Of a stretch of DNA of 64,000 nucleotides, positions 1 to 17,258 are shown piece after piece. The position numbers were made by a program, and so were the translations under genes. The notes under the pieces are model-generated. The model saw nothing but the letters and a program-made list of their open reading frames with translations, was not told the origin of the DNA and made no database searches. Source of the DNA: Elusimicrobiota bacterium (GTDB lineage Bacteria > RUG730 > JBDRED01). The stretch is taken from positions 14,902-78,901 of the forward strand of contig JBDRED010000021.1 of the NCBI GenBank assembly GCA_043820025.1, written 5' to 3'. Within the stretch, counting starts at the first letter, position 1. Each line of letters opens with the position of its first letter.

Positions 1-3000
1 TCATCCATTCTTACCGGATGATTATCATATTTTGCTCCAACCGTTCTTAAAGCATTAAAAACTATTCCGGCGCTTGATGCCTGATCAGCAGTTACAGCAT
101 AATTTTTTGCAGATTGATAATGGAAATAGACTAAAAATGCCTGGTTAAGTTCGCGCGGAGTATAATCCTTGCCAAACATCCTTTTTGTTAAAATCTCTGA
201 CAATGCCTCTGTATACATAAACAGGTTTGTGTCCTCATCAACCCAGTATGCGGGAATGCCTCTTGTATTGAAGGCTTGAAGCTGGTCTTGAGTAGCCGCC
301 TTTTTGGCCTTTCCGCTTTTAACCATATTGTCTAAGTTTCTATATAAACCTGCAAGCCTTCTGAAGTTTACGCCTTTTTGAATATCTCCGCTTATAATAA
401 AGCTCATGTTAAATAAATGAAATTCATCGAAATCAATTACGTTCTGAGCCATGAATGCGTCGAATATACCGCTCGGGTCGCCTCTGTAATGGCCTTTATG
501 TCCAAACTGGTCATGCGTGTCTAATACTATAACATCGGGGTTATTATAAGCCTTTGCTAAGTCATTGAATTTGCCCTGTATAAATAATTCACTGCCATTG
601 ACCATTGTAAGGCCAAATACTTTAAACTGATCCGGAATAGCAATAATATTCTCATCGCCGGGGTCATTTAAGAACTTTAATAAAGCAGCCTCATTTTCAA
701 GCACTAGTGTGCCTCTATATTTGTTGCCTAAGAGCCACTTCATCATCTGATGCCTTGCGACAAGCATTTCGGTTTTACCCATAGCAGTACCTGCCTGAAC
801 AGACTGTCCCAAAGCAAGGTAAACAAGGCCCGCTACCTGCGCAGGCCTAAGCTGAACTCTGTTATTTTTAGTAAACATATAGTCTACAAGAGCAACTGCA
901 TTAAAAAGATTTTTGGAAAGCGAGGTTTTCCAAGTTCCATTATCAACAGCTATTTTTACTGCGCTATATGCGCCAGAATCTCTAAATTTATCAACCTTAT
1001 ATGTAACATTTCCCAATTCATCATAAGTAAAATACTTTTCAAGCTCGTCAAGTCCTGCTGTGCTTACATTGTATGTTTTATAGTAAGCGGCTGTTTTATC
1101 GTCTAGAGTCAGGTCCTTGATTACCGCCGGAGCTGCTTCCTCTCCCACTACCACTTCTTCCTCTTCAACCAGTGACTCTTCCTCTTCCATTTTCAGCTCG
1201 CCTTCTTTATAAACCGTTCTTACAATAGTTCCATTTAATGTTGTATTAACAATAATTTGACCATTTTCCTGTATTACTTCAAAGTTTATTCCCGGCGCTT
1301 CCTTAGTTTTTAATTCATTATAAATTTTAAGCATCACTCGGTAGAATTCTGTTACCTTTGTGAAGTCTTCGCCAAAAGCTTTAAATAATTCAGCATTAAC
1401 CTGCTCAATTATATCTTTGGCTTTTGCAGTATCAAAATCAGCGGCCATTAAATAACTCTGCACCATAAGAGCCTGCGCTGTTTCGCGTCCCGGCAGATAC
1501 TTGCTTGCAAGGTTCTTTGCGCCGTCAAATGCCATACGCTCTGCCTGGCCAAACACGCGCGATAAATAAAGGCCTCTCGAATCTTCCTCAGTTACAGTTG
1601 GCGTTATAATCTCAAATGATACGCCGCGTCCTCTTAAAACCTCTTTTATTCCCTGAGCGTGGTATCCGCCCACAACCATTACCTTTATTTTTGATTTTAG
1701 CTTTTTGCCTATTTTTAACGTATTGTTTACAAGTATCTCGTTACGTTTTTCTGCAAGCTGATAGAATGATTCCATATTATCATCAGCCTCTGCTAAAAGC
1801 TCTTTGTTCTGGGCAAAGTAATTAACATGCGATAACTTTCCAGTTATCTCTCCTGCCTTTGAGTAGAATGCGTCCTTTGCGCCTTTCCATTCTTCCGCGT
1901 CCTGACTGCTGACGCGGTTAGATAAATAATTATCCATAAGGCCCATATAATGATCGCAGTATAAAAGCGTGTTACCATCCGTTCTGCCTCTCATAAACGC
2001 CTGTTTCAATGTATAAGTAAGATGCTCTTTTTCCTCTAAGAGCTTTGAGTCGTCAATTGAGCTGGCATACTCAAGATATTTAAAGTATGCGCTGAGCGCA
2101 GGATATGTGCTTGTAATATCGAGCTGTTTTGTTTTTATAAAATCCTTTAGGAATAAATAGTAGGCGTCTGTGTCCTTATGCGACCATGTTTCTAAGTTGT
2201 CAAACTCTTTCTCAGTAATAACTTCCTTTAAACGGCTCATAATGTATGATGTCTCGGTTAATACTGAGTCTGTGTTAAGGGTCTTTCTTAATGCAGCTGC
2301 GCTCAAAAGATTATTTAACTGCGGATATTGTTTTTCAAACGGGACATTGTATTCATCAGCCTTTGATTTTAAAAATTTTAAGTATGATTCCAGCGAAAGT
2401 TTGCCGTTTAAGTATCTCTTTTCAGTTTCCTCAAACTCCTTTAATGCGTTTGTATATAAATATCTCTTACCTTTTGTAAGAACATTTTTAACCCTGTCCA
2501 TAATGCCCAAAAGCATCATTCTGTATTCAAGCGACTTGTAAAGCATACGGAAGTCATGCTTATAGGTTTGCGGATCCTCAATACCTTCAAGCGTAAGCTT
2601 ACCTGGATTTTCTATTGAATAATATTCAGGGCCGCTTATATCTCCGCTTTCAACAAAATAATTTACAACCCTTTCTTTTACGGTTTTATCAGGTATACTG
2701 GCTAAGATTGCGGTGTCAATCTCTCCCCATGAACCTTCAATACCGACAAACTTAGCGTCTTCGCCATATGTCTCTTTAATTACTCGGATTATCTCTTTAA
2801 TATTTTTCTGCGCCTGGGGGTGACAGTGCAGATCTTTTATACAGATAACCTTTTCATCGCTTTTACCATTAAATGTTTCAACAACCTTTCCATAGCTTGG
2901 AGGCATGTATAGCGCGCTGCCAAGAGCCGGCGCCGGCGCTGCTGCCCAGACAAAGTCATGGCATGTCACAGTAATAAATGTGACAAGCACTGCCAGAGCG

Positions 3001-3107
3001 ACTGTGCGCGTTGTAGACGAGAACCTGCTCCTCCCGTCTTCATGCCACCGCATAATTCTATTTAATAAACGTTTGCCTTTCAACTTAAGATAATCCGAGT
3101 ACTTCAT
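1..3107 (-). CDS. Large membrane-anchored protein with SecA DEAD-like ATPase domain; partial, C-terminus lies beyond window start (not in supplied ORF track)
   Basis: Reverse-strand translation from ATG (revcomp of cat at ~3105-3107, GGTGG RBS upstream) gives MKYSDYLKLKGKRLLNRIMRWHEDGRSRFSSTTRTVALAVLVTFITVTC... with no stop to position 1. TM/signal anchor at aa ~34-48. Motifs LGQSVQAGTAMGKTEMLVA...LGNKYRGTLVLENEAAL (like SecA motif I AEMRTGEGKT...VHVVTVNDYLA) and VIDFDEFHLFNMSFIISGD (like SecA DEVDSILIDEARTPLIISG). Confidence 0.6.
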   Translation of the reverse strand, partial: MKYSDYLKLKGKRLLNRIMRWHEDGRSRFSSTTRTVALAVLVTFITVTCHDFVWAAAPAPALGSALYMPPSYGKVVETFNGKSDEKVICIKDLHCHPQAQKNIKEIIRVIKETYGEDAKFVGIEGSWGEIDTAILASIPDKTVKERVVNYFVESGDISGPEYYSIENPGKLTLEGIEDPQTYKHDFRMLYKSLEYRMMLLGIMDRVKNVLTKGKRYLYTNALKEFEETEKRYLNGKLSLESYLKFLKSKADEYNVPFEKQYPQLNNLLSAAALRKTLNTDSVLTETSYIMSRLKEVITEKEFDNLETWSHKDTDAYYLFLKDFIKTKQLDITSTYPALSAYFKYLEYASSIDDSKLLEEKEHLTYTLKQAFMRGRTDGNTLLYCDHYMGLMDNYLSNRVSSQDAEEWKGAKDAFYSKAGEITGKLSHVNYFAQNKELLAEADDNMESFYQLAEKRNEILVNNTLKIGKKLKSKIKVMVVGGYHAQGIKEVLRGRGVSFEIITPTVTEEDSRGLYLSRVFGQAERMAFDGAKNLASKYLPGRETAQALMVQSYLMAADFDTAKAKDIIEQVNAELFKAFGEDFTKVTEFYRVMLKIYNELKTKEAPGINFEVIQENGQIIVNTTLNGTIVRTVYKEGELKMEEEESLVEEEEVVVGEEAAPAVIKDLTLDDKTAAYYKTYNVSTAGLDELEKYFTYDELGNVTYKVDKFRDSGAYSAVKIAVDNGTWKTSLSKNLFNAVALVDYMFTKNNRVQLRPAQVAGLVYLALGQSVQAGTAMGKTEMLVARHQMMKWLLGNKYRGTLVLENEAALLKFLNDPGDENIIAIPDQFKVFGLTMVNGSELFIQGKFNDLAKAYNNPDVIVLDTHDQFGHKGHYRGDPSGIFDAFMAQNVIDFDEFHLFNMSFIISGDIQKGVNFRRLAGLYRNLDNMVKSGKAKKAATQDQLQAFNTRGIPAYWVDEDTNLFMYTEALSEILTKRMFGKDYTPRELNQAFLVYFHYQSAKNYAVTADQASSAGIVFNALRTVGAKYDNHPVRMD

Positions 3108-3912
3108 GAGTACCACCCCCTAATAAATTTATAGGGGTCAGGTCTCCACATTCCACATTTTTGTGGAATGTGGAGACCTGACCCCTACTTTCTCTGTTTG
3201 ATTTATAATAAAAAAACGCGTTAAGATCTTTTTTAAAAGACCCAAACGCGTTTTTACTGCCATCCATATTCGTTATATTTTCAATATCTTCCTTTTCTGA
3301 CCTCGACTCATCAACACGCTTTAACATACTCCTTATTTTTGTCAAATAATAAAATACGCTAAGCGCCATAAATAAAATATCAGCCTTCCATACGCCAAAC
3401 AGCGATGAAAAGCCGGATCTATCCCTCCAGATTCCGTCTAGTTTATTATGACCGAAATTTTTATTAAACACTCCATTGCTGATATTCTGTTTGTGCCCGC
3501 AAATCTTTTTTAAATACTTGATCAGGTATTCATACATGCTTACAGCAATGATATAGTCGTTTGGTTTAGAAGTATTTTCAAACTCAGTCCCAAAATCATT
3601 ATTGTGTTTTATCTTTGTTTCGGACGAAGCGATTTTTTGAAATTTGACTGAGCGGAATGTAACAATAGAAACATTGCCTGCGCTGCATATAAGCGCAAAT
3701 GAAGCGTCAAATACACGCTTAATACGCGGCCTAACTGCTGCTGAACTCAGTACAGACTTAACTGCGTCAGAGTTAATCAGGCTGTTAGTTGGAACTCCCA
3801 CAGCGCCAACATACGCCTGCGCTGTAACCTGAATACAGAACGCAAAAAGGACTGCTGTGCCCGCAATCTTAGCCCTATTCATATTGGAGATGATATTAGA
3901 TAGTTTCTTCAT
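3085..3912 (-). CDS. Hypothetical secreted protein (N-terminal signal peptide)
   Basis: ORF track 275 aa; N-terminus MKKLSNIISNMNRAKIAGTAVLFAFCIQVTAQA is signal-peptide-like; no recognisable domain. 3' end runs through the 24-bp palindrome, so true C-terminus uncertain. Confidence 0.5.
   Translation of the reverse strand: MKKLSNIISNMNRAKIAGTAVLFAFCIQVTAQAYVGAVGVPTNSLINSDAVKSVLSSAAVRPRIKRVFDASFALICSAGNVSIVTFRSVKFQKIASSETKIKHNNDFGTEFENTSKPNDYIIAVSMYEYLIKYLKKICGHKQNISNGVFNKNFGHNKLDGIWRDRSGFSSLFGVWKADILFMALSVFYYLTKIRSMLKRVDESRSEKEDIENITNMDGSKNAFGSFKKDLNAFFYYKSNRESRGQVSTFHKNVECGDLTPINLLGGGTHEVLGLS
3134..3185. repeat. Perfect 24-bp inverted repeat (stem ggggtcaggtctccacattccaca, loop tttt) between two co-oriented genes
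   Basis: Read directly: ggggtcaggtctccacattccaca tttt tgtggaatgtggagacctgacccc. Lies ~27 nt upstream of the large ORF start and within the last codons of ORF 3085..3912. Confidence 0.8.
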
Positions 3913-3969
3913 TTAAATATAATCCTCCTATGGACTAATATAAAAATACCACAGAAACCATTGAAAACA

Positions 3970-4012
3970 AAGCGAAGTTATTGTGAATTTTTGTGAATTT
4001 TTTGCGAAGATT
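3970..4012 (-). promoter_or_regulatory. Conserved ~40-bp upstream element (copy 1), shared with the copy at 40651..40692
   Basis: aagcgaagttattgtgaatttttgtgaattttttgcgaag vs aagcgaagtttttgtaaaaaatgtgaattttttgcgaaa; both end 53-58 nt upstream of start codons of minus-strand secreted-protein genes. Confidence 0.45.
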
Positions 4013-4315
4013 TTATACACAGATTACACAGATAACGCTCCTGCGTCATCCTGAGTGAAACGAAGGATCTCCGAAAGAGTTACCACTCACGAAGATTTCA
4101 CCGCCTAAGCTGGACCCCGCAAAATGCGGTGGCTTAGTGCAGCAGCCCTCAGAATGAGAGCTGCCTGTCGCAGACGGACCGGGCTGCAGTCCACACATTT
4201 ATTTCTCTTATTTCTTCAATATTCTTTTATAGCAAAATATCATAAGCCCTATTATTACGCTCCATGATACAATAAGCATTATCCATCCAAATATAGTCAT
4301 AAAAATTTCCCCTCT

Positions 4316-4343
4316 GTCATTCCTGCTTTCGCAGGAATGACAA
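4316..4343 (-). terminator. Hairpin (tgtcattcctgc/gcaggaatgaca, loop tttc) followed on minus strand by T-run; candidate terminator of NSS transporter gene
   Basis: Perfect 12-bp inverted repeat read in sequence; on minus strand followed by gaggggaaatttttat. Confidence 0.5.
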
Positions 4344-4416
4344 CAGAAACAGGATTCCCGCCGCAGTTTATCCGGCCATAAGCGGGGCAGGAATAACAGA
4401 ATATCAAAACAATGAA

Positions 4417-6039
4417 TTATAATGACTCTCGAGTCTTTTTTCTCCAGGCGTGGCGTACCAAAAACGCCAATAAAATAAATATTGCCAAAAGCCCAAGCCT
4501 GGTTGCAAGAATATATACTCTATTTTCAGGCGCGATATTATGCATCGAGATTGTAGGCAGACCTTCCTGATAAAACCAAACCGCAAGAATAACCAGCAAA
4601 AATGTTGGAGTTACATACTTAATAACCGGCTTATACCACCCCGGGATTTTCATGTCAGCGCCTTGATGTATCTCATCCCACGCTTTATCCATACCAAATA
4701 TCCAAACAAATAAAAAAGCCTCAACTGTGCCGAATAATACCAGGCAGAATGTGCCGCCCCAGAAATCCAGCTCCCCTATCACGCCTTTACTGATAAACAA
4801 GATAGGAGCATGGCATAAAATAAAACATATTACGGCAATTATTTTAACAGCCTTTTCCCTGGATACATCAAACTCATCCTCTAAAAACGCTATTGCAGGC
4901 TGAAGCAGTGATATTGAAGATGTGATACCTGCCATAAAGAGTAAAAGGAACCATAGGAATGAAAAGAATACGCCCACCGGGATATTATGAAATATTATGG
5001 GCATTGTGACAAAACTAAGGTTAAACGTGCCGCTTTGGGCAATACTAACTATTTGTTTCGGCCCAAAAAACATGTATGCGGCCGGAATAACAATACTACT
5101 TCCTAAAATCACTTCGGCAAATTCGTTTGTGCTTACAGCAGCTAATCCGTTTAATACTACGTCGTCACTTTTTTTTAGATAACTCGCGTATGTGAGTATA
5201 ACACCTATTCCAACGCTAAGCGTAAAAAACACCTGCCCTGCGGCCGCGAGCCAAACCTTTGCGCTTTTAAGATACGCAAAGTTTGGATTCCATAAGAAAC
5301 CCAGCGCGTCTTTAATAGTGTAAGATTCGACAGTTGACGCAGGGGCTTTCAGCGTCAAGACTCTTACTGCCATAATCACGCCCATTAAAAGAAATATTGG
5401 AAGAAAGAGCCTGCATATTTTTTCAATTCCATGTTTTATTCCAAAGTATACGACTAAAAAATTAAGAACAAAGGTAATAAAAAAGAACATATACGCAGGC
5501 CCAATCCCGCTAAAAAACTGATTTTTTTCCAAGCCCTGGTAACCTGCCAGAAAATTCTGCATAAGCCCGGAATTAAGGGCTGCCGCATATTTTGGCGTTA
5601 AACTAAATACGGCGAAGCCCAACAGCCACGACTCAATATAAGTATAATATATTAAAATAATTAAAGGCCCAAAAATACCAATCACACCAAAATATTTAAT
5701 AAATCTATTCTTCTCCCACATAGTATGAAATATTCCGGGAGCCGTACCATGTTCAATACCTCCGCCATATCTGCCGATTGTCCATTCTATCCACATGAGC
5801 GGTATACCAAGAAGTATAAGCGCCACAAAATACGGAATCATGAATGCGCCGCCGCCATTGCTTGCGGCCTGCACAGGAAACCTCAAAAAGTTTCCAAGGC
5901 CTATAGCACTGCCTGCAACAGCAAGAATAATACCAAGCCTCGATCCCCAGGAATCGCGAATCTTTATTCTTTTTGGACCAATAATTGGTTGATTTTGATT
6001 TTCCATAATTCTCAATTCTATTCTTACTCCGTTTTCCAC
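4417..6039 (-). CDS. Neurotransmitter:sodium symporter (NSS/SNF, LeuT-like) family transporter
   Basis: AVAGSAIGLGNFLRFPVQAASNGGGAFMIPYF matches NSS signature GLGNxWRFP; multi-TM. Track start is GTG; the internal ATG (MENQNQPII) is an alternative start. Confidence 0.85.
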   Translation of the reverse strand: MENGVRIELRIMENQNQPIIGPKRIKIRDSWGSRLGIILAVAGSAIGLGNFLRFPVQAASNGGGAFMIPYFVALILLGIPLMWIEWTIGRYGGGIEHGTAPGIFHTMWEKNRFIKYFGVIGIFGPLIILIYYTYIESWLLGFAVFSLTPKYAAALNSGLMQNFLAGYQGLEKNQFFSGIGPAYMFFFITFVLNFLVVYFGIKHGIEKICRLFLPIFLLMGVIMAVRVLTLKAPASTVESYTIKDALGFLWNPNFAYLKSAKVWLAAAGQVFFTLSVGIGVILTYASYLKKSDDVVLNGLAAVSTNEFAEVILGSSIVIPAAYMFFGPKQIVSIAQSGTFNLSFVTMPIIFHNIPVGVFFSFLWFLLLFMAGITSSISLLQPAIAFLEDEFDVSREKAVKIIAVICFILCHAPILFISKGVIGELDFWGGTFCLVLFGTVEAFLFVWIFGMDKAWDEIHQGADMKIPGWYKPVIKYVTPTFLLVILAVWFYQEGLPTISMHNIAPENRVYILATRLGLLAIFILLAFLVRHAWRKKTRESL

Positions 6040-6500
6040 CAGAAATGATGGCCGCAGTTCGGGCAGGTTACCTCAACCTCGCCTTTTTTTTGGTCTTTTG
6101 TCTCCAGCATTATTGTCATATCAATCCAGCTTTTTGCTATAGCGTGAACCTCAACAACAGGGTAGAATGTATCCTGCCGGTCTAAAACCCTGCCTTTAAT
6201 GGTTACTTTATCGGATGTCCGGAGGGAGTTGATAATATCTGTTAAACTATTATCATTTACGTCATAGACATATTCGATTCCTATTGATGTATACGGCCTA
6301 AATTTTCCTGTTTCAGTCTTTGTGTCAAACTTTGTGTAAATTATTACATCCTTCCCTTTATAAAAACCCGGATCAGCAATAATTTTATTAGGATCAGTCA
6401 CTGAGTAAGAAAAAATGTTTGTAGCAGATAATAGCATTAATAGCGCTAACGTAAGTCTTATTATCTTTTTCATAAATCCCCCAAAATATTTTTTGCGCAA
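6024..6500 (-). CDS. Hypothetical exported/lipoprotein-like protein with C-terminal CPNCGHHFWW zinc-ribbon-like motif
   Basis: Track start is TTG; likely real start MKKIIRLTLALLMLLSATNIFS at ~6473 (signal peptide). Confidence 0.5.
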   Translation of the reverse strand: MRKKYFGGFMKKIIRLTLALLMLLSATNIFSYSVTDPNKIIADPGFYKGKDVIIYTKFDTKTETGKFRPYTSIGIEYVYDVNDNSLTDIINSLRTSDKVTIKGRVLDRQDTFYPVVEVHAIAKSWIDMTIMLETKDQKKGEVEVTCPNCGHHFWWKTE

Positions 6501-6559
6501 TTTTTGCGTTGTAGCCGGGGGTCTTTAGACCCCGGGCTGCATCATAAACACTTTCGCAC

Positions 6560-8659
6560 TTATACTATCTGCGAAAAATCCGCAATTCTCGAAAATGTGT
6601 TTGTAAGATGAGTTAACAAAACCAGCCTGTTATTCCTTACAGATTCATCCTTATCCATAATTAAGACATTGTCAAAGAAAGTATCCAGCGCAGGCTTTAA
6701 CTTCGCTAATAATTGAAGAAAAGAAACATATTTTTTCTTGCCTTGAAGTTTGTCATCAAGAACAACCTGCTGCAGGCTGTTCCATAAATTCTTTTCCTCC
6801 TGCATAGCAAATAAATTTTCATCTATTTTTTTGTCCGCAAAATTAAATCCTTTGTCCTTTGCCTGCCTGACAATATTATGCGCGCGTTTATATAGAGCAA
6901 TGAGCTGTTCAAAATCTTTGTCTTTTCTCATATCGTGAATAGCGCTCAACTTTAAATAATCGTCGTGAACAAGTATACCGGACTCTCTTTCGCTGATTGA
7001 ACGAACTTCGTCAACGCTAAACTGTTTATCTATCAGCCAATTTTCAAATCTTTTTTTATAAAAATCATTTAATGCGCTTACCGCTTCCTCTATACTTTCT
7101 TTTGAAAACTTATTTTCAAAAAGCGCTGAAACATTTTTTGCTAAATCAAAAAATGACAAATCCCATTTTTTATCCAAACATATTTCAAATACTCCATAAA
7201 ACTGGCGTCTCATGCCATAAGGGTCGTAAGAGCCTTTTGGCCTGTGTCCTGTAAGAAAGGTTGAGACTACATTATCAATCTTATCGGCTATACTGACTAT
7301 TGCAGACTCGTTTGACCGGGGCAATTTATCTCCCGCAGTTTTTGGCAGATAATTCTCCTCTATCGCGCTCGCTGTTAATTCGTCTTCGCCATTATCTTGA
7401 GCATAAACGCGCCCCATAACACCCTGCAATTCCGGAAATTCCTGAACCATTTCAGTTAAAAGATCTGTCTTTGCAAGCAAGGCAATACGGCTGATCCTGC
7501 TGTTATCCGCATCAATTTTTAGAATATTTACAAGCATCTCTGATATTTTTTGTATTCTATTTACCTTATCATAAACAGAACCCAGCTGTTCTTGATATAC
7601 AACTTTTTTTAAATCATCCACTCTATCAATAAGTTTTTTCTTTCTATCCTGCATATAAAAAAACTCCGCGTCCTTAAGCCTCGCGGTAAGAACCTTTTCA
7701 TAACCCTGACAAACTATTTTTTCATATTTTGTTCTTCCGTTTTTTACGCCGATAAAATGCGGCGTTAATTTTCCATCCTTTGTTTCAAGAGCAAAGAATT
7801 TCTGATGATGCTTTAATACAGTGACGATTACTTCTGCGGGAAGCTGCAGAAAACGTTTGTCAAACGAACCTAAAATAGTAAACGGATATTCGGTAAGAGC
7901 TGAAACCTCGTCTAGTAAATCCTCATGAATTATAGGAATGCCGTATTTTTTATTAATGCCTTTAAACCCGTTAATAACCATTTCCTTTCTCTTGTTCCGG
8001 TCAATAACAACGCTGTTTGCCAGCAATTTTTTATGATAATCATCTCTGTTTTTGACATTAATTTTCTTAGCCCTGAAACCGCTCATACCATATGTTATTT
8101 TGCCTGATTTTATTCCGGCGCATTCAAATGACAATGCCTTATTTCCAAACATACCTAAAAGCCATCTGACAGGCCGCGAAAATCTGGCCTTAGACTTATT
8201 CCAAACCATTGTTTTTGGAAAGTTAAGCGTTATTATAAACTCGTTAAATATCTTTGGCAGTATTTTTTCAGTTTTCTCGGATTTACCCACGATCTCAGCT
8301 GTTATATATTCGCCTTTTGACGTTTCTTTAAATTTTAAATCCTTTACCGCAACGCCGCATTTCTCAGCAAATCCTTTAAGCGCGTTTGTAGGCTTCCCAT
8401 TTTCGTCATACGCTATTCTTTTCGGCGGGCCAATGATTTCTTCCTTGGACACTCTTTGAGCCTCGTCTACATTAAGAGCTTCAATTACTATTCTGCACGG
8501 CGTTATAAAAACATTTATATCGTCATAAGTAATGCTGTTATTATCCATAATATTTTTAAAAAGTGATTTTGCGTTATCTCCGGCAGTCCGCTGAGCTGAA
8601 AGAGGAAGCTCCTCAACGCCTATTTCAAATATTAATTCTTTTTTCATATATTCTCCCAA
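6560..8659 (-). CDS. glyS: Glycyl-tRNA synthetase beta subunit
   Basis: MKKELIFEIGVEELPLSAQRT... typical GlyS N-terminus; ~695 aa; likely ATG at ~8647 preceded by GGGAGA. Confidence 0.9.
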   Translation of the reverse strand: MGEYMKKELIFEIGVEELPLSAQRTAGDNAKSLFKNIMDNNSITYDDINVFITPCRIVIEALNVDEAQRVSKEEIIGPPKRIAYDENGKPTNALKGFAEKCGVAVKDLKFKETSKGEYITAEIVGKSEKTEKILPKIFNEFIITLNFPKTMVWNKSKARFSRPVRWLLGMFGNKALSFECAGIKSGKITYGMSGFRAKKINVKNRDDYHKKLLANSVVIDRNKRKEMVINGFKGINKKYGIPIIHEDLLDEVSALTEYPFTILGSFDKRFLQLPAEVIVTVLKHHQKFFALETKDGKLTPHFIGVKNGRTKYEKIVCQGYEKVLTARLKDAEFFYMQDRKKKLIDRVDDLKKVVYQEQLGSVYDKVNRIQKISEMLVNILKIDADNSRISRIALLAKTDLLTEMVQEFPELQGVMGRVYAQDNGEDELTASAIEENYLPKTAGDKLPRSNESAIVSIADKIDNVVSTFLTGHRPKGSYDPYGMRRQFYGVFEICLDKKWDLSFFDLAKNVSALFENKFSKESIEEAVSALNDFYKKRFENWLIDKQFSVDEVRSISERESGILVHDDYLKLSAIHDMRKDKDFEQLIALYKRAHNIVRQAKDKGFNFADKKIDENLFAMQEEKNLWNSLQQVVLDDKLQGKKKYVSFLQLLAKLKPALDTFFDNVLIMDKDESVRNNRLVLLTHLTNTFSRIADFSQIV

Positions 8660-8764
8660 GAATAAGTTTAATGAGTTATTGAGTTCTCTCCTTCTCCTTC
8701 CCCTTATTTCCTCTTCATCTCTCTCTCTTCATCTCATCTCTCTTTCTTTCCTCTCTCTTTCTTT

Positions 8765-8800
8765 CCTCTCCCCTATGGGGAGAGGATTAAGGTGAGGGGG
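8765..8800 (+). repeat. REP-like 36-bp element copy A (core palindrome cctctcccc-tat-ggggagagg), preceded by polypyrimidine tract 8700..8764
   Basis: cctctcccctatggggagaggattaaggtgaggggg; a direct copy occurs at 9246..9281 and an inverted copy at 9168..9203. Confidence 0.8.
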
Positions 8801-9155
8801 CTTCATCTCTTCTTTTGAAAATAGCCCTCTCAATAACTTGACAAACACCTTCAATATTTTTCAAAATATCCCTATCACTAAAACGTAGAATCTCTATACC
8901 CTGATTATTTAATATATTCGTTCTCTTCGTATCATATATTATATTTTTTTCTTCATAGTGCTGACCGCCATCTGCTTCTATTGCTAATTTATATTTTGAA
9001 GAATAAAAATCTAATATGTACTTTTGGACCGGAACCTGCCTTTTAAATTTTACTCCTGATAATTGCCTATTTCGCAACACTCTCCAAAGCTTTTTCTCTG
9101 TATCTGTCTGCTTTTTTCTTAATGCACGACTTCTCTCGATATTTTTTCGTTTCAT
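8787..9155 (-). CDS. DUF559 (Vsr-like/restriction-endonuclease-fold) domain protein
   Basis: ALRKKQTDTEKKLWRVLRNRQLSGVKFKRQVPVQKYILDFYSSKYKLAIEADGGQHY...ILRFSDRDI matches the DUF559 pattern (LW..LR....G.KFRRQ.P...YI.DF.C....L.IE.DG..H). Confidence 0.85.
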   Translation of the reverse strand: MKRKNIERSRALRKKQTDTEKKLWRVLRNRQLSGVKFKRQVPVQKYILDFYSSKYKLAIEADGGQHYEEKNIIYDTKRTNILNNQGIEILRFSDRDILKNIEGVCQVIERAIFKRRDEAPSP

Positions 9156-9167
9156 AATTCATATTCA

Positions 9168-9203
9168 CCCCCTCACCCTAACCCTCTCCCCACAGGGGAG
9201 AGG
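9168..9203 (-). repeat. REP-like element copy B, inverted relative to A (33/36 identical to revcomp of A)
   Basis: ccccctcaccctaaccctctccccacaggggagagg vs revcomp(A) ccccctcaccttaatcctctccccataggggagagg. Confidence 0.8.
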
Positions 9204-9216
9204 GAAATAATAAACA

Positions 9217-9298
9217 CTCTTCATCTCTTTCCTCTCTCTTTCTTTCCTCTCCCCTATGGGGAGAGGATTAAGGTGAGGGGGCTTCATCTCTTCTTTTG
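9217..9298 (+). repeat. Direct repeat of the polypyrimidine+core+tail unit (copy C, core 9246..9281)
   Basis: ctcttcatctctttcctctctctttctttcctctcccctatggggagaggattaaggtgagggggcttcatctcttcttttg nearly identical to 8720..8817. Confidence 0.8.
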
Positions 9299-9311: not shown

Positions 9312-10187
9312 TTACCTAACATACGCTTCTGCAACCTTTTTTGCCATATTACGAACGCGCGCGATAAAATGTGTGCGCTCAGTTACGCTTATCACTCCTC
9401 TTGCCTGAAGCATATTAAACAAGTGCGACGCTTTTAAAACATAATCATACGCAGGGCCTATAAGGTTTTTTTCAATCAGCCTCAATGCTTCTTTTTCAGA
9501 AGAATCAAACGATATTCTTAAAAATGCGGTATCAGCCTCTTCAAAATTATATTTTGAGAAATCTTTTTCATCTCTTAAATGAACATCGCCATAAGTAAGC
9601 GGATATTTTTTACCATCAATATTCTGCGTTGTCCATAAAATATCAAATACGCTGTCTTTATTCTGCCTATACATCGCTATTCGCTCAAGCCCATATGTAA
9701 TTTCAACAGTGATTGGATCCAGTTCAATGCCGCCCATCTGCTGAAAATATGTAAACTGCGTGATTTCCATGCCATCCAGCCATACCTCCCAGCCAAGCCC
9801 CCAGGCTCCAAGCGTAGGAGATTCCCAATCATCCTCAACAAACCTTACATCATGTTTTTTTAGGTCTATGCCTATACTCTCAAGGCTCTGCAAATACAAT
9901 GATTGAATATCCTTTGGCGCAGGTTTTATCACAACCTGATATTGATAATAATGCTGAAGCCTGTTTGGATTTTCTCCATATCTTCCGTCAGTAGGCCTGC
10001 GCGACGGTTCAACATAAGCCGCTGCCCACGGCGCAGGGCCCAAGCATCGAAAAAATGTGGCAGGATTAAATGTGCCTGCGCCCTTTTCAATGTCATACGG
10101 CTGCATTATTGCGCATCCTTTTTTCGCCCAGTATTTTTCTAAACTTAAAATCATATCTTGAAATGTCATAATTCTCCTTTTTATCAT
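9312..10187 (-). CDS. glyQ: Glycyl-tRNA synthetase alpha subunit
   Basis: [45 protein letters not shown]...[10 protein letters not shown] is a strong GlyQ match; real start probably MTFQD at ~10169. Confidence 0.9.
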
Positions 10188-12385: not shown

Positions 12386-13465
12386 TTACTTCAAATCATA
12401 TTCATCTAATATCTCGCCTGTAATCTCCTCTAATATATCCTCCATGGTTACCAGCCCTATTGTTTTCCCGCCATCTTTTACTATGAGCATATGCACACGT
12501 TTCTTTTTCATAATATCAAACACACTGCTTAGGCTGTCCTGCGGCGAAACAGTTATAGGCTGCCGTAAAAATTTATTTGTATCAAAATCCTTATCATACG
12601 GCCATACCGACAATATATCCTTTGCGTACAATATTCCTATAATATTATCCAAACTGCCTTTGTATACTGGCGCTCTCGATCTTCCCAGCGCAATCATTCT
12701 CTCCTGTATCCCGGGGGATTTTTCAATATCAATAGACTCAATTGATTCTTTTGGAGTCATTATCTGTCCTATTTTCTTATCCTTCATTTCGAGAAAAGCA
12801 TGTATCATCTGCTCAAGATCTCCTCGTATTATGCCCTGTTTTCTAGCTCGTATAATAAATTGATGAAGGTCACTGCGCGTAAACTTACTTATCTCCTCAT
12901 GCCTTTCTCCCTTAAACCTTCGTTCAATCATTGACACTAGATTAATTATTGGACTAATAATTGTAAGAAAGGATAAAAGAGGCCGGTATATTAAATGAAT
13001 TAACCGTTTTGCGCGCGTCTTGCCGATATTTTTTGGCAGTACTTCGCCAAAAACCAGCAAAAGAATTGACGCTGATACGAATGAGGCTGCGCTTGCGCTT
13101 GTTATTGTTAATCCGAATCGCAAAGCGTATCTAATAAAGAAATATGTATAGCCAATACCAAATCCAATATTTACAACATTATTCCCAATAAGTATGCCTG
13201 TGATAAACCAAGAAGGATTTTCTACCCACTGCGCCAGCTTTTTATACTTTGCTGTTTTCATTAGCTTTCGTATTTCGAATTTTGACAGGCTTAAAAGCAC
13301 CATCTCACTGCACGAAAAAAACGCTGATAATAATAAGAAAAAAACAATTAACGAAAAAATATTATCCTCCCCGAAAAATTTCCGTATCTCAGCGGGGACA
13401 GTCCCAGCGCCTGACTTTTTCGATCTAATTAATCCCGGTACTGCGAAGTATCTTTTTTTCTTCAC
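12386..13465 (-). CDS. Second DUF21-CBS-CorC_HlyC family protein
   Basis: Same architecture as the upstream paralogue; track N-terminus overlaps ybeY so real start is probably internal. Confidence 0.75.
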   Translation of the reverse strand: MKKKRYFAVPGLIRSKKSGAGTVPAEIRKFFGEDNIFSLIVFFLLLSAFFSCSEMVLLSLSKFEIRKLMKTAKYKKLAQWVENPSWFITGILIGNNVVNIGFGIGYTYFFIRYALRFGLTITSASAASFVSASILLLVFGEVLPKNIGKTRAKRLIHLIYRPLLSFLTIISPIINLVSMIERRFKGERHEEISKFTRSDLHQFIIRARKQGIIRGDLEQMIHAFLEMKDKKIGQIMTPKESIESIDIEKSPGIQERMIALGRSRAPVYKGSLDNIIGILYAKDILSVWPYDKDFDTNKFLRQPITVSPQDSLSSVFDIMKKKRVHMLIVKDGGKTIGLVTMEDILEEITGEILDEYDLK

Positions 13466-13925
13466 GCCTCATTACACGCTTATTTTCAACAGTATCATCT
13501 TTATACCCAATAAGATGAAGCAGGCCATGCGCCAACAAAAGTGCGAGTTCTTTTCTTATACCGGTTTTAAACTCCCTGCTCTGTTTTTTTGCAACTTCTG
13601 CGCATATAAATATCTCGCCGAATATACACGGCGCTGTCAAATCATATCCCGCATTATCCGTATTTATTGGCACAGAAATAACATCTGTCGGCTGACTCTT
13701 AGAAAACAAGATTCTATTAAGCTGAATAATTCTGCTAATAGAAACAAATGAAATGTATAATTCGCGATTTGTAATTTGTTTATTCTCAATCCGCGAATAA
13801 ACAAATTTTTCTACCAGGCGTGTATAGTAAACTTTATTGATCGCTGTCTGCCTCTGGCGATTATAAATTTTTATCTTCATTTTTAATCGGCTCCGGATAT
13901 TCCACTCTGTTATGATATATTCCAA
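13425..13925 (-). CDS. ybeY: Endoribonuclease YbeY (rRNA maturation)
   Basis: C-terminal HGLLHLIGYKDD matches the YbeY H..H..GYDH zinc motif; ~166 aa. Confidence 0.8.
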   Translation of the reverse strand: MEYIITEWNIRSRLKMKIKIYNRQRQTAINKVYYTRLVEKFVYSRIENKQITNRELYISFVSISRIIQLNRILFSKSQPTDVISVPINTDNAGYDLTAPCIFGEIFICAEVAKKQSREFKTGIRKELALLLAHGLLHLIGYKDDTVENKRVMRREEKKILRSTGIN

Positions 13926-15354
13926 CTAATGTTTTTACAAAACTATCCGCAATGATATGCAGATCCTTTAGAGTTATATCGCATTCGTCGAGCTGTCCGT
14001 CTACAAACTTATTATTAACAATCTTTCCGACTATATCTTGTATTTTTGCATGGCTGAATTCATCGCCGCTTCGCACAGCCGCCTCAGCGCTGTCAGCCAG
14101 CATAATAATCCCCGCTTCTTTTGTGTTTGGTTTTGGCCCGGGATATCTGTACTTCTCTTCATTTACTTCTTCCTTACTCTCTTTCATTGCCTTATGATAA
14201 AAATATTGTATCAGGCTTGTGCCATGATGCTGTTCGATAATATCTATAATAGCTTTATCAAGTTTATATTTTTTAGCTAAGCTTACTCCATCTTTAACAT
14301 GCGCGGATAATATTAAACTGCTCAAATTCGGAGAAAGCTCATCATGCCTGCTAATAAGCTCAAGCGGCTGGTTCTCAATAAAATATTCAGACTTTTCAAT
14401 CTTTCCTATATCATGATAATAAGCGCCTACGCGCACAAGCATTGGATTAGCGCCTATCAATCTCGCGGCCTGCTCGCCCATTGTGCCAACAAGCTGGCTG
14501 TGATGATATGTGCCCGGAGCCTCGAGCATCATCCTCTTTAAAAGAGGCTGCGTAAAATCCGCAAGCTCTAAAAGCCTTATATTTGTAGTTATACTAAATA
14601 AACTCTCTAAAAATGGCAATACGCCTACAGCAATCATAGACGAAATGATCCCATTGAAGACTCCGCCGATAATATCATTAAATACCTTCTGCGGTAAAAA
14701 TATCTTGCTCATAAATGCCAAAAATAAAATTGAAATCAAATTCATAAAACTTACATATAATCCGGCTTTAGCAATATCACGCCTATGATAAACCTGAATC
14801 GTCCCGACTATAGCGGCAAGCGACGCAAAAAAGACAGTAAAGAAGAGAGCGAAGTTTTTACTATACAGGAAAGTTAAAATAAAAATATTAATCATTGCAA
14901 CTATAAAAGCCGGTAACGGGCCCAGCAGGATTGTTATAAGCATTGTGCCTGCAGGCAGCGGCGTTATCAGTGGCGGCAGATTATGGTTTTTAACTACGAG
15001 AATCAACAATGTTGAAACTAAAAGTATAAGGCCTATTAATGTGATTGAATCATCACAATGAAGAAGCTTAGGAACATATTTTTTTAAAAAATAAATAGCA
15101 AAAAACGTGCATAACGTAAGCAGTAATGAAACAGCAATAATAAGCTCATAATTTGACATAAGCTCTAGAATGAGCACTCCAAAGAAAAGCAAATAAATAA
15201 CTGTCGCAACAAACCATATTGGAATATGTATCTCGCGATGAAATATGCTCACATCCTTACGCACAGCTTTTTTCCGCGCTCTGCCGAGCTTATGCAGAAA
15301 TAATATAAGCATTTTTCTTATAAAATATTTCACATTGCTATTTATCATAAACAC
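13861..15354 (-). CDS. 7TM receptor with intracellular HD (HDIG) hydrolase domain (PgpH/YqfF-like)
   Basis: N-terminal multi-TM, C-terminal GAYYHDIGKI HD motif; classic neighbour of ybeY. Confidence 0.8.
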   Translation of the reverse strand: MFMINSNVKYFIRKMLILFLHKLGRARKKAVRKDVSIFHREIHIPIWFVATVIYLLFFGVLILELMSNYELIIAVSLLLTLCTFFAIYFLKKYVPKLLHCDDSITLIGLILLVSTLLILVVKNHNLPPLITPLPAGTMLITILLGPLPAFIVAMINIFILTFLYSKNFALFFTVFFASLAAIVGTIQVYHRRDIAKAGLYVSFMNLISILFLAFMSKIFLPQKVFNDIIGGVFNGIISSMIAVGVLPFLESLFSITTNIRLLELADFTQPLLKRMMLEAPGTYHHSQLVGTMGEQAARLIGANPMLVRVGAYYHDIGKIEKSEYFIENQPLELISRHDELSPNLSSLILSAHVKDGVSLAKKYKLDKAIIDIIEQHHGTSLIQYFYHKAMKESKEEVNEEKYRYPGPKPNTKEAGIIMLADSAEAAVRSGDEFSHAKIQDIVGKIVNNKFVDGQLDECDITLKDLHIIADSFVKTLVGIYHNRVEYPEPIKNEDKNL

Positions 15355-15469
15355 ACCTTATTATGCTCACCGCGCCGCTTAAGACTCCCGCGCTATTGCT
15401 TAACATGCCTGTTTTGAACGCGGCACTATTTTTTTATATCTATATGTTGTAAAAACAGCCGGATAGCCG

Positions 15470-17258
15470 CTAAATGTTACTATCTTTTGCATTGACTGTC
15501 CTCAACTTTATCCCTAATTCAATAAGCTGTTTCTCATCAACACCTGAAGGCGCATTGGTTAATAAGCACGCTGCTTTTTGCGTTTTGGGAAACGCTATAA
15601 CATCTCGAATAGATTCCTTCTTTGCAAATATCATAATTAATCTATCGAGCCCTAAAGCAAGCCCTCCGTGAGGAGGCGCCCCATACTCTAAAGCGTCTAA
15701 CAAAAACCCGAACTTTGTTTTTGCTTCTTCATCAGAAATATTTATCAGTTCAAACACCTTCTTCTGAATATCCTTTTGATGAATACGAATACTGCCGCCG
15801 CCAATTTCAACGCCATTTACAACAACGTCATAAGCCCTGGACATTATCTTTGACGGATCTTGATTTAATTCATTAATATCTTTAATATCAGGAGCGGTAA
15901 ACGGATGATGAATAGCTTCAAAACGTTTTTCATCCTTATTGTATTCGAAAAGCGGGAAGCTATAGACCCAAACAAAGCTATAAACATTCTTTGGAATCAT
16001 CTCCAGCCTGCGCGCTAAAATAATTCTGAGCTGGCCTAAAACCTTTTGAGCTATCTTTGTTTCGTCGCTCACAATGAGCATTAAATCGCCCTTTTCTAAT
16101 TCAAGCGCTTTTATAATATTTTCAGTAGTAACTTCATCCATAAATTTAGAAACAGGAGATTCCAACCCTTTATCAGTATACTTTCCCCATACCAGCCCTT
16201 TTGCGCCCAGTTCCTTTGCTTTATCTGTAAGCTCATCCAGATCCTTTCTGGAAAATGAACCTGCCTTAGGCGCGCGCAATCCAATAACCTTTCCTCCTGA
16301 TTCTATTACAGACTTAAACACCTTAAATTCAGTATTTGCAAATACTGAAGATACATCATTTAAAAGCATTTCATAACGCGTGTCAGGCGCATCGCTTCCA
16401 TACAAACTCATAGCCTTTTCATAAGTCATTCTGGGAAAGGGTGTAGTAATATTTAAACCAAAAACAGCCAATGCTTCCTTTAACATTCCTTCAATAAGCT
16501 CATATATATCCTCTTCATGAATGAATGACATCTCAAGATCTATCTGTGTGAATTCGGGCTGTCTATCCGCGCGCAGGTCTTCGTCTCTAAAACATTTTGC
16601 TATTTGATAATATCTATCAAAACCCGCAACCATTAAAAGCTGTTTAAATAATTGCGGTGATTGGGGCAAAGCGAAAAAACTGCCGTTAGATACCCTGCTT
16701 GGCACCAAGTAATCACGCGCTCCCTCAGGGGTTGATTTTGTTAGTATTGGCGTTTCTATCTCAACAAAACTGCGCTCGCTAAAAAAACTGCGCACCTTTT
16801 GAAGAAACTGACTGCGATATCTAAAGACTTTTTGCATTTCCGGATTTCTCAAATCAAGATACCTGTATTTCAATCTGACATCCTCTGCTACTCCCATTGA
16901 TTCTTCTATATCAAATATACATGGCTTAGCCTGGTTTAAAACCTCTATATTAGTTAAAATTACCTCTATTTTACCTGTAGGCAAATCCTTATTTACAGTT
17001 CCCTCGGGCCGCATAGCAACCTTTCCTGTTATATTTAAAACAGTCTCAGGCTTTACATTATGTTTTACTATCTCATCAAGGGTTGAACTTGCGATTTCTT
17101 CAGGCCTGTATACAACCTGGACCAATCCTGAATAGTCTCTAAGGTCAAAAAAAAACAACACCGCCATGGTCCCTTCTGCTGTTAACCCAGCCCGCGATCT
17201 TGATATCTTTACCGCATAATTTTTCTGTTATTTCTCCGCACACATTTGTTCTATACAT
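15470..17258 (-). CDS. aspS: Aspartyl-tRNA synthetase, interrupted by an apparent +1 frameshift in a 9-A homopolymer at ~17147..17155
   Basis: Track ORF starts [14 protein letters not shown]; upstream in another frame [37 protein letters not shown] completes the AspS N-terminal anticodon-binding domain (cf. E. coli MRTEYCGQLR...[23 protein letters not shown]). Frames join only if the A9 run is A8. Confidence 0.85.

Follow-up and report, generated by a model that had tools for sequence, protein, structure and literature searches.

A putative giant-class membrane protein of Elusimicrobiota with a predicted TIKI-like head and a SecA-like ATPase motor

We analyzed a 64,000-nucleotide (nt) stretch of DNA, hereafter the window, from an Elusimicrobiota bacterium (assembly GCA_043820025.1, contig JBDRED010000021.1, positions 14,902 to 78,901 of the forward strand) and studied a long reverse-strand open reading frame (ORF) at its left edge, the product of which carries a conserved N-terminal module, the head, followed by an ATPase, the motor. 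Translation of the minus strand of window positions 1 to 3200 gave a stop, then a methionine at 3107 and 1,035 stop-free codons down to base 1; assuming ~6% stops per codon, we estimate the chance occurrence of such an open frame at P <1e-25. A preliminary description of this DNA had reported an edge-truncated reverse ORF of more than 1,000 amino acids (aa), absent from the ORF track, and this was confirmed: the ORF is missing from the program-made list because it runs past the window edge. The plus-strand ORFs within the region (750-1106, 2170-2541 and others) were taken as shadows of the long reverse frame. The features, all on the minus strand, were located as follows.

1 to 3107, minus strand: 5' part of a very large gene, 1,035 codons (aa 1-1035), cut by the window edge.
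3113 to 3120, minus strand: Shine–Dalgarno-like sequence GGGGGTGG, read from the sequence, 5 nt upstream of the ATG at 3105-3107.
2949 to 3005, minus strand: hydrophobic helix TVALAVLVTFITVTCHDFV, aa 35-53, a signal anchor or signal peptide by Kyte–Doolittle scan.
1533 to 2906, minus strand: conserved head module, aa ~68-525, with a predicted TIKI/TraB/ChaN/EreA-like hydrolase fold.
2826 to 2834, minus strand: D92-L-H94, candidate first half of a TIKI-type set of two histidines and two acids, after the strand at aa 86-91.
2736 to 2738, minus strand: E124 (in IEGS), invariant in a 50-sequence alignment, 30 residues past H94 and after the predicted strand 118-123.
1788 to 2576, minus strand: all-helical insertion of ~260 aa (aa ~178-440) that splits the head core in the predicted structure.
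1743 to 1745, minus strand: R455 (in KRNE), invariant, 28 residues upstream of H483.
1659 to 1670, minus strand: G480-G481-Y-H483 (GGYH), with the second catalytic histidine candidate, after the strand 474-479.
888 to 1532, minus strand: linker, aa 526-740, with the acidic run MEEEESLVEEEEVVVGEE, conserved in the closest relatives only.
387 to 887, minus strand: first RecA-like nucleotide-binding domain (NBD1) of a SecA-like superfamily 2 (SF2) ATPase, aa ~741-907.
771 to 794, minus strand: motif I (Walker A) AGTAMGKT, aa 772-779.
594 to 617, minus strand: FGLTMVNG, aa 831-838, pairing with SecA F-LGLTVG in both unforced MAFFT and hhalign alignments.
498 to 506, minus strand: FGH, aa 868-870, part of the family motif FGHLxN, pairing with the SecA segment E(F/Y)GFDYLRDN.
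387 to 428, minus strand: motif II (Walker B) DEFH, aa 894-897, followed by SFIISG, aa 902-907.
3 to 386, minus strand: start of an NBD1 insertion at the position of the SecA preprotein-crosslinking domain (PPXD), aa 908-1035, placed by family alignments; the window ends within it.

Position 3107 is a credible start because the N-terminal extension ahead of the hydrophobic helix aligns with those of two related proteins, P0009 and P0014. The signal anchor named in the preliminary description was recovered as a signal-anchor-like helix at aa 35-53. In a simple hydropathy (Kyte–Doolittle) scan, the method behind all transmembrane (TM) predictions given here, this helix was the sole strongly hydrophobic stretch among the 1,035 aa; it is preceded by an N-region with a net charge of +7 and directly followed by VWA/AAP. 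All 50 of the 50 aligned members of the head family start in this way, with a hydrophobic helix after a net-positive N-region, and the combination would act as a Sec-type signal anchor or signal peptide.

The coding status was backed by three homologues: P0014, P0009 and P0010 aligned with aa 8-933, 25-912 and 34-819, respectively, at E 1e-127 to 1e-150 (phmmer, small local database), and identity to the relatives was 36-42% over the N-terminal module at aa 1-540. A decaying pseudogene or an assembly artefact without a functional protein would agree with the finding that neither of the two large protein collections searched contains the 1,035-aa protein, though neighbours from the same contig of this metagenome-assembled genome (MAG) are present in them, and with the error-prone assembly of such loci, the contig of one relative (L002) being a fold-back chimera. 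Such an explanation is most improbable given the uninterrupted 1,035 codons and the good ribosome-binding site, the retention of all invariant residues of head and ATPase, and the phmmer alignments to the three homologues, which continue through aa 700-930. The chimeric contig L002 (JBHPMO010000014.1) has positions 1-3618 mirrored at 13014-16631 (radical SAM, adh_short and Pyr_redox_2 genes). We considered its protein P0009 (1,016 aa, not flagged partial) as a short complete form and rejected it; because the contig folds back, P0009 is probably cut by the chimeric junction near 12.2 kb.

From aa ~741 on, the protein is certainly an SF2 ATPase. The strings that the preliminary description had quoted as SecA motifs are all present (AGTAMGKTE at aa 772-780, LVLENEAAL at aa 801-809 and FIISGD at aa 903-908); its wording of clear matches did not hold at the sequence level, where the Pfam family SecA_DEAD is silent. 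The Walker A aligns with SecA MRTGEGKT, and within our family alignment A2 its G-K is invariant and the T nearly so; in Walker B, D-E is invariant and H nearly invariant, and the SecA counterpart of the motif II segment is DEVDSILIDEARTPLIISG. The order of elements follows SecA and SecA2: motif I, Ia, GL-T-V, FG…, motif II with (I/V)ISG, and an insert at the PPXD position, continued in the relatives by GxTGT and a second nucleotide-binding domain (NBD2) with GxGTD and NQxRGRxxR.

An exhaustive HMMER search with aa 660-1035 retrieved 14 relatives (E 2e-13 to 9e-4), most of them internal segments of proteins of 2,985-7,074 aa, nearly all flagged partial and assigned to Omnitrophota (Ca. Gygaella obscura among them), to Elusimicrobiota or to unclassified bacteria; word-indexed searches with alignments A2 and A6 gave one and two proteins, respectively. 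The aligned relatives show the full SF2 set: (A/G)xxxGKT, FGLxLVNG, FGHLxN and DExH followed by S(Y/F)I(I/V)xG, then, past motif II, an insert of 150-250 aa, G(A/M)(S/T)(A/G)T, NERGxTGxD(Y/F) and QxxGRxxR, with the GxTGT-type motif III and a second RecA domain bearing G-x-GTD and NQ-x-RGR-x-x-R. The NBD2 of P0014 and P0007 reads GTGTDF or ATGTDY and then AQRRGRVVR or NQRRGRVVR. The relatives carry several TM segments, and P0014 and P0007 have a TM hairpin within the insert and further TM hairpins after the motor. The helical scaffold and wing domains of SecA (HSD and HWD) were not detected in the relatives by Pfam, nor was a C-terminal zinc-finger region. By eye, the A8 consensus contains a conserved helical stretch after NBD2 (…SE.L….LRDKYLIEP.K.MI…; P0014 aa ~1580-1630, P0007 aa ~1230-1280) that might begin a SecA-like scaffold helix.

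Searches with curated models and single sequences gave little. Neither Pfam, with PF07517 (SecA_DEAD) and PF01043 (SecA_PP_bind), nor the NCBIfam SecA models matched the query even at E <=10, and SecA_DEAD, the search that the preliminary description had proposed, also missed all ten of the ten relatives scanned. Among these ten, Pfam gave weak hits to DEAD in two (best E 1e-4), ResIII in one and Helicase_C in one; PF00270 remained below its cut-off in the relatives (P0008 with 19.1 bits against a cut-off of 26) and was missing from the query. Against PDB sequences, phmmer with the query gave no match, and the A2 profile ranked XPBII (E 0.03) above Thermus thermophilus SecA (E 0.31). Compared with single sequences by hhalign, the family gave 7% for Escherichia coli SecA and 16% for Mfd, and its hidden Markov model (HMM) scored 11 SF1 and SF2 proteins of E. 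coli and the locus all below 10 bits.

For profile–profile comparison, E. coli SecA and nine diverse sequences from PLSDB records were combined into a SecA/SecA2 profile, and a DEAD-box profile of equal size was prepared; both are small, with 10 sequences each. The hhalign results were as follows.

Family against SecA, whole module: 97.0%, E 1e-10, score 92.6, 467 columns (NBD1, insert and NBD2).
Family against shuffled or reversed SecA: at most 0.2%, score at most 20.
Family against DEAD-box: 88.8%, E 2.5e-6, score 56.8, 127 columns (NBD1 only).
Family NBD1 against SecA NBD1: 66.5%, E 5.4e-5, score 39.3, 92 columns.
Family NBD1 against DEAD-box: 92.8%, E 4e-7, score 56.8, 127 columns.
Family NBD2 against SecA NBD2: 92.0%, E 6.7e-7, score 50.5, 169 columns.
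Family NBD2 against DEAD-box: 62.5%, E 7.3e-5, score 40.0, 106 columns.
Family insert against SecA PPXD: 9.3%, P 0.0035, score 24.3, 106 columns.
Family insert against shuffled and cross-domain controls: at most 0.8%, P at least 0.067, score at most 16.8.
SecA against DEAD-box: 96.8%, E 2e-10, score 85.8, 327 columns.

The profile homology to SecA covered NBD1, the insert at the PPXD position and NBD2 in the same order, and when ten family modules were aligned with residues 1-640 of E. coli SecA by unforced MAFFT, most elements were collinear. An AlphaFold2 (AF2) model of aa 660-1035, built from a 10-sequence alignment, reached a predicted local distance difference test (pLDDT) score of 75-92 in its core. 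In Foldseek, all five matches with E <=1e-3 were Bacillus subtilis SecA, and SecA or SecA2 made up 15 of the top 18, with alignments of 313-375 columns. SecA was ranked first by two structure-search methods, with longer alignments and higher identity, and it is the best structural match to the query motor.

The preliminary description had set SecA against a generic helicase fold, and profile–profile comparison answered in two parts: SecA was preferred over the 467 columns of the whole module, and NBD1 alone favoured the DEAD-box profile (56.8 against 39.3). A generic nucleic-acid helicase or translocase of SF2 within a polyvalent protein, its likeness to SecA reflecting shared ancestry and an unrelated insertion, would account for the NBD1 score, for Pfam seeing just DEAD, ResIII and Helicase_C in the relatives and never SecA_DEAD, and for XPBII leading the PDB sequences; the SecA and DEAD-box profiles are, moreover, themselves related. 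We regard this explanation as unlikely. Only the SecA profile spans NBD1, insert and NBD2, the insert matches PPXD above every control, the structure searches place SecA first, and the GxGTD and NQxRGRxxR motifs of NBD2 resemble the SecA versions. Scans of the relatives revealed no domain for nucleic-acid binding. Membership in the DEAD-box or DExH families is likewise at odds with the subthreshold PF00270 scores and the 150-250-aa insert after motif II. We conclude that the organisation and the predicted structure of the motor are SecA-like and that it most likely descends from SecA, an assignment that rests on architecture and structure, not on a clean sequence signal, and that misses the curated family definitions.

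Differences from canonical SecA and SecA2 are nevertheless large. Identity is ~14-18%, below the Pfam thresholds; the query motor sits behind a signal anchor and a hydrolase-like head of 500 aa in a protein of several thousand residues; and the closest relatives have a TM hairpin in the insert and no detected HSD, HWD or zinc-finger region. Another large hypothetical protein with an internal SecA module is encoded on a 13.8-kb Legionella geestiana plasmid (WP_135842960.1, 2,947 aa; NZ_CP041715.1, coding sequence 453-9296, our locus L083). Its Walker A reads KTGEGKT and it matched the SecA profile at 99.8% (E 1.7e-29, 476 columns). Unlike the query, it is a clear SecA relative with 25% identity to E. 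coli SecA, gives just 0.6% with the query family profile and comes from another phylum.

The roughly 700 aa ahead of the motor had been called unrecognisable in the preliminary description; they consist instead of a conserved module with a probable TIKI/TraB/ChaN-like fold and a linker. In a 50-sequence alignment of the head, H94, E124, G155, G175, Y449, R455, G480, G481 and H483 were invariant and D92, C95, Q100 and E177 nearly invariant. In the AF2 model of the head (pLDDT 75.6), strands 86-91, 118-123 and 474-479 end at D-x-H, E124 and GG-x-H, respectively, which gives a candidate set of two histidines and two acids at the strand ends of a predicted parallel beta-sheet core, as in the TIKI superfamily (Tiki, TraB/PrgY/GumN, EreA/EreB/Bcr135, ChaN, RRSP/PMT-C2 and HopBA1). 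Enzymes of this superfamily have the pattern ExH…28 aa…E…H (PMC6254334). The query resembles them in the acid-x-His after strand 1, the glutamate ~30 residues on after the next strand, and the arginine and G-x-x-His after a late strand; the spacing from histidine to glutamate is 28 in RRSP and Bcr135 and 30 in the query (H94-E124), and the TraB protein YbaP has QRN…GALH, comparable with R455 in KRNE and the subsequent GGYH. It differs in that the core is split by the helical insertion, the first acid is Asp and not Glu, and the head forms the N-terminal part of very large proteins. Pfam, including TraB, gave no significant match for the head, the head profiles A3 and A6 gave none against PDB sequences, and profile A6 against YbaP was not significant. 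Because sequence and profile searches gave no confirmation, we consider the TIKI-like hydrolase fold probable, not proven.

A word-indexed search with the 1,035-aa query found only P0001-P0003, each matching the N-terminal module alone: P0001 (1,664 aa, annotated as "protein kinase") at aa ~34-620, P0002 (a 686-aa fragment) in split form to about aa 522, and P0003 at aa ~55-520. Their C-terminal parts, where present, are unrelated to that of the query. The search for the same fusion elsewhere, suggested in the preliminary description, succeeded with P0014 (3,842 aa, partial), P0009 and P0010, which share the head–linker–ATPase arrangement; their phmmer alignments run through the linker, and P0007 shares its last ~80 aa. 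The combination of a TIKI-like head and an ATPase is rare, with four cases found, and unannotated. Genome-contig scans with the protein gave no relative, and metagenome-contig scans gave nothing or just six distant head loci without the ATPase.

A degenerate-pattern scan of GTDB species representatives identified 58 head loci, in Endomicrobiales and Elusimicrobiales (including termite-gut Endomicrobium), the candidate division FCPU426, Goldiibacteriota, Firestonebacteria, Omnitrophota and Ca. Theseobacter. The head was N-terminal at every scanned locus, in ORFs of ~1,000 to >3,800 aa, and among these loci only that of P0014 has the ATPase alongside it. Behind the head, Pfam recognised varied cargo in 20 complete members: GH77, GDE_C, GT1, Pkinase, DnaJ, Lysine_decarbox/SLOG, PPDK_N, cytidylate kinase, PRK, Metallophos, LysM, deaminase, HTH and Arm. 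The head is thus a reusable N-terminal module with differing cargo in other family members.

Some genomes have many copies. The FCPU426 MAG CSMAG_1987 (DAOWGI01) contains at least 11 separate head loci (among them L026, L029, L030, L032, L035, L040, L041, L048, L053 and L060), and the MAGs MFD02923.bin.1.27 and binchicken_co224_182 contain at least 7-8 each, which indicates a large paralogous expansion. In P0001 (locus L009), Pfam placed a eukaryotic-type protein kinase domain (1.2e-31; regions of interest aa ~620-700 and 881-1204), and a GDCGLYALSRA stretch recalls, by eye, the catalytic motif of OTU-type cysteine peptidases.

On balance, we read the ORF as the 5' end of a gene for a very large, multidomain, membrane-associated protein of the giant-gene class, otherwise known from Omnitrophota and related phyla, combining a TIKI-like head with a SecA-like motor. 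The head would be an active hydrolase, most likely a peptidase (or an esterase), that processes its own protein or a target; maturation of the own protein or attack on a target would parallel the peptidases of Omnitrophota giant proteins described below. The motor may use ATP to push or hold an unfolded polypeptide and not nucleic acid and, by analogy with the proposal for those proteins, probably has a part in inserting or exporting the stretch of its own giant chain that lies downstream.

A number of observations weigh against this reading. Less than half of the SecA-like motor lies inside the window, which holds only the first ~128 residues of the insert, modelled at low confidence; the model of aa 660-1035 has a low mean pLDDT of 62.9, and both structural models, of the head and of the C-terminal part, were built on shallow alignments. 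No curated model recognises the head or the motor, SecA does not stand out from other SF2 proteins in the HMM and single-sequence tests, the NBD1 core taken alone scores higher with the DEAD-box profile, and the signal from insert to PPXD is weak. The hydropathy scan, finally, predicted no TM segment between the N-terminal helix and the ATPase; with the N-terminus inside by the positive-inside rule and no second TM segment, the motor comes to lie on the wrong side of the membrane, unless the helix does not direct translocation or the protein has its site of action in another cell.

The latter would be the case for a secreted polymorphic effector, in which the head serves export, release or targeting, the ATPase is cargo acting inside another cell, and no self-export takes place. 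This is unlikely as an explanation of the query but keeps a substantial share of our belief because the topology puts the motor outside and the swappable cargo typical of cytoplasmic enzymes, always behind an N-terminal head, also fits. The many paralogues in some genomes, as in CSMAG_1987, the export-type N-terminus of all 50 aligned members and the occurrence of head-family members in termite-gut Endomicrobium MAGs point the same way, as does the presence of TIKI-fold domains in the delivered toxins RRSP, PMT and HopBA1. Polymorphic toxins and MARTX-type effectors likewise combine a constant N-terminal part for export or processing with variable enzymatic modules and many paralogues per genome. 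They differ from the head family, where the cargo often consists of metabolic-type enzymes and not recognisable toxins and where neither genes for immunity or dedicated secretion nor repeats-in-toxin regions were seen. In the window, the gene has housekeeping genes as neighbours, with no evident secretion apparatus or immunity-like gene next to it; it is not obvious what a SecA-like polypeptide motor would do as a toxin; and the TM hairpins of P0014 and P0007 in and after the motor fit a resident membrane protein better.

The preferred reading, a resident membrane protein of the giant-gene class, has a precedent. The preliminary description had held that the architecture was undescribed, and this fails because West-Roberts et al. 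(2023, bioRxiv 10.1101/2023.11.21.568195) describe giant membrane proteins that contain SecA-like domains: the majority of the giant proteins of Omnitrophota, and some from actinobacteria, have divergent SecA DEAD and preprotein-binding domains but no scaffold and wing domains. The same study sets the size classes (very large, >=10,000 aa; giant, >=30,000 aa), reports very large genes in Elusimicrobiota too, and proposes a self-export role for the Omnitrophota giant proteins, which have signal-peptide-proximal C39 and S8 peptidases at their N-termini. Near the Omnitrophota giant genes it also describes secretion loci with a conserved Rotamase_2 isomerase, and most of these giant genes are directly followed by a small pilZ gene. 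A 2026 preprint (bioRxiv 10.64898/2026.06.07.730766) reports a PF07517 architecture cluster among long Omnitrophota proteins.

Our findings agree with this class in several respects: a huge, mostly unannotatable, membrane-associated protein whose SecA-like motor lacks a recognisable scaffold or wing, relatives with TM segments, and an N-terminal signal sequence followed by a putative peptidase, here a hydrolase of another type. Relatives of the query motor come from Omnitrophota MAGs, Rotamase and PilZ genes lie upstream of P0014, and PPDK_N and Lysine_decarbox, found in head-family cargo, are both named in a supplementary-figure legend of West-Roberts et al. The query differs in its host phylum, Elusimicrobiota, and in a module too divergent for PF07517. 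The SecA domains of the Omnitrophota giants follow TM anchors near the C-terminus, whereas the query motor is near the N-terminus (aa ~741 on); their N-terminal domain is C39 or S8 and that of the query TIKI-like; and the relatives of the query, partial and 3,000-7,000+ aa long, are not shown to exceed 30,000 aa. In the two preprints we did not find this more divergent motor branch that escapes Pfam, a motor placed behind a signal anchor close to the N-terminus, a motor joined to a TIKI-like head, or the head family with its assigned fold.

Giant proteins with internal SecA-like domains raise the recently recognised puzzle of how chains of many thousand residues are inserted or exported. The locus adds a motor branch missed by curated models that links Elusimicrobiota and Omnitrophota proteins; as such genes are edge-truncated and invisible to Pfam, they are dropped or left "hypothetical." A motor close behind the signal anchor sharpens the topology paradox and offers a compact construct (~1,500 aa in P0014) for tests of self-export, while the fold and the candidate catalytic residues, provided for the unannotated head of dozens of large polymorphic proteins, are open to mutagenesis. 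More speculatively, and with little confidence, the signal-anchored TIKI-like head may define an undescribed and widespread family of polymorphic mega-proteins in Elusimicrobiota, FCPU426, Goldiibacteriota, Firestonebacteria and Omnitrophota, a genome holding up to 11 or more paralogues. In the branch of the query, a SecA-derived motor encoded in cis would turn the protein into a self-contained export device. If true, the chain downstream of the motor would be passed through the membrane by it and then cut into pieces by the head, a form of autonomous delivery distinct from the known secretion systems.

The gene immediately upstream bears on one further explanation.

3085 to 3912, minus strand: 275-aa ORF (hypothetical protein ABH857_02020, MFH1714955.1) with an N-terminal hydrophobic segment, co-oriented with the long ORF.

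The preliminary description had noted this co-orientation, which we confirmed, together with a 23-nt overlap with the start of the long ORF; conservation could not be shown, the ORF has no Pfam match, and its being part of the same system is unproven. At all three loci with head and ATPase, a small ORF (212-275 aa) with a hydrophobic N-terminus and no Pfam match lies directly upstream on the same strand (window 3085-3912, minus strand; L002 8489-9172, for P0009; L003 9339-9977, for P0014), and the three show no detectable similarity (pairwise BLASTP E 0.01 to 0.5). This arrangement would suit an accessory, SecA2-like translocase with an N-terminal extension, exporting a client such as the 275-aa signal-peptide protein through SecYEG. 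We judge that very unlikely. The three upstream ORFs share no detectable similarity, accessory SecY2 and Asp genes are missing from the window, and the relatives are multidomain proteins of 3,000-7,000+ aa, not SecA2 proteins of ~800 aa, which also removes the alternative, raised in the preliminary description, of a divergent SecA paralogue with an N-terminal extension. Moreover, we know of no signal-anchored SecA.

Elsewhere, the window has a G+C content of ~38% and almost all genes on the minus strand. The neighbours are housekeeping in character: an SNF-family symporter, glyS, glyQ, recO (protein MFH1714961.1), CNNM-type transporters and a 7TM-HD protein. DusB and a DUF559 endonuclease are also encoded nearby. 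The P0014 gene is preceded (L003/L010 6149-9977) by two Rotamase/SurA-like genes, a weak PilZ gene and the 212-aa ORF; no Rotamase- or PilZ-type neighbours were found within 10 kb upstream of the gene in the window. A further large protein without annotation is encoded by a 947-aa ORF at 37755-40598 (minus strand), with no Pfam family at E <=1e-5. The DUF559 (REase_MTES_1575-type) endonuclease gene (122 aa, 8787-9155, minus strand) lies between glyS (6560-8659) and glyQ (9312-10187); these two genes usually form an adjacent pair, which the endonuclease gene interrupts here.

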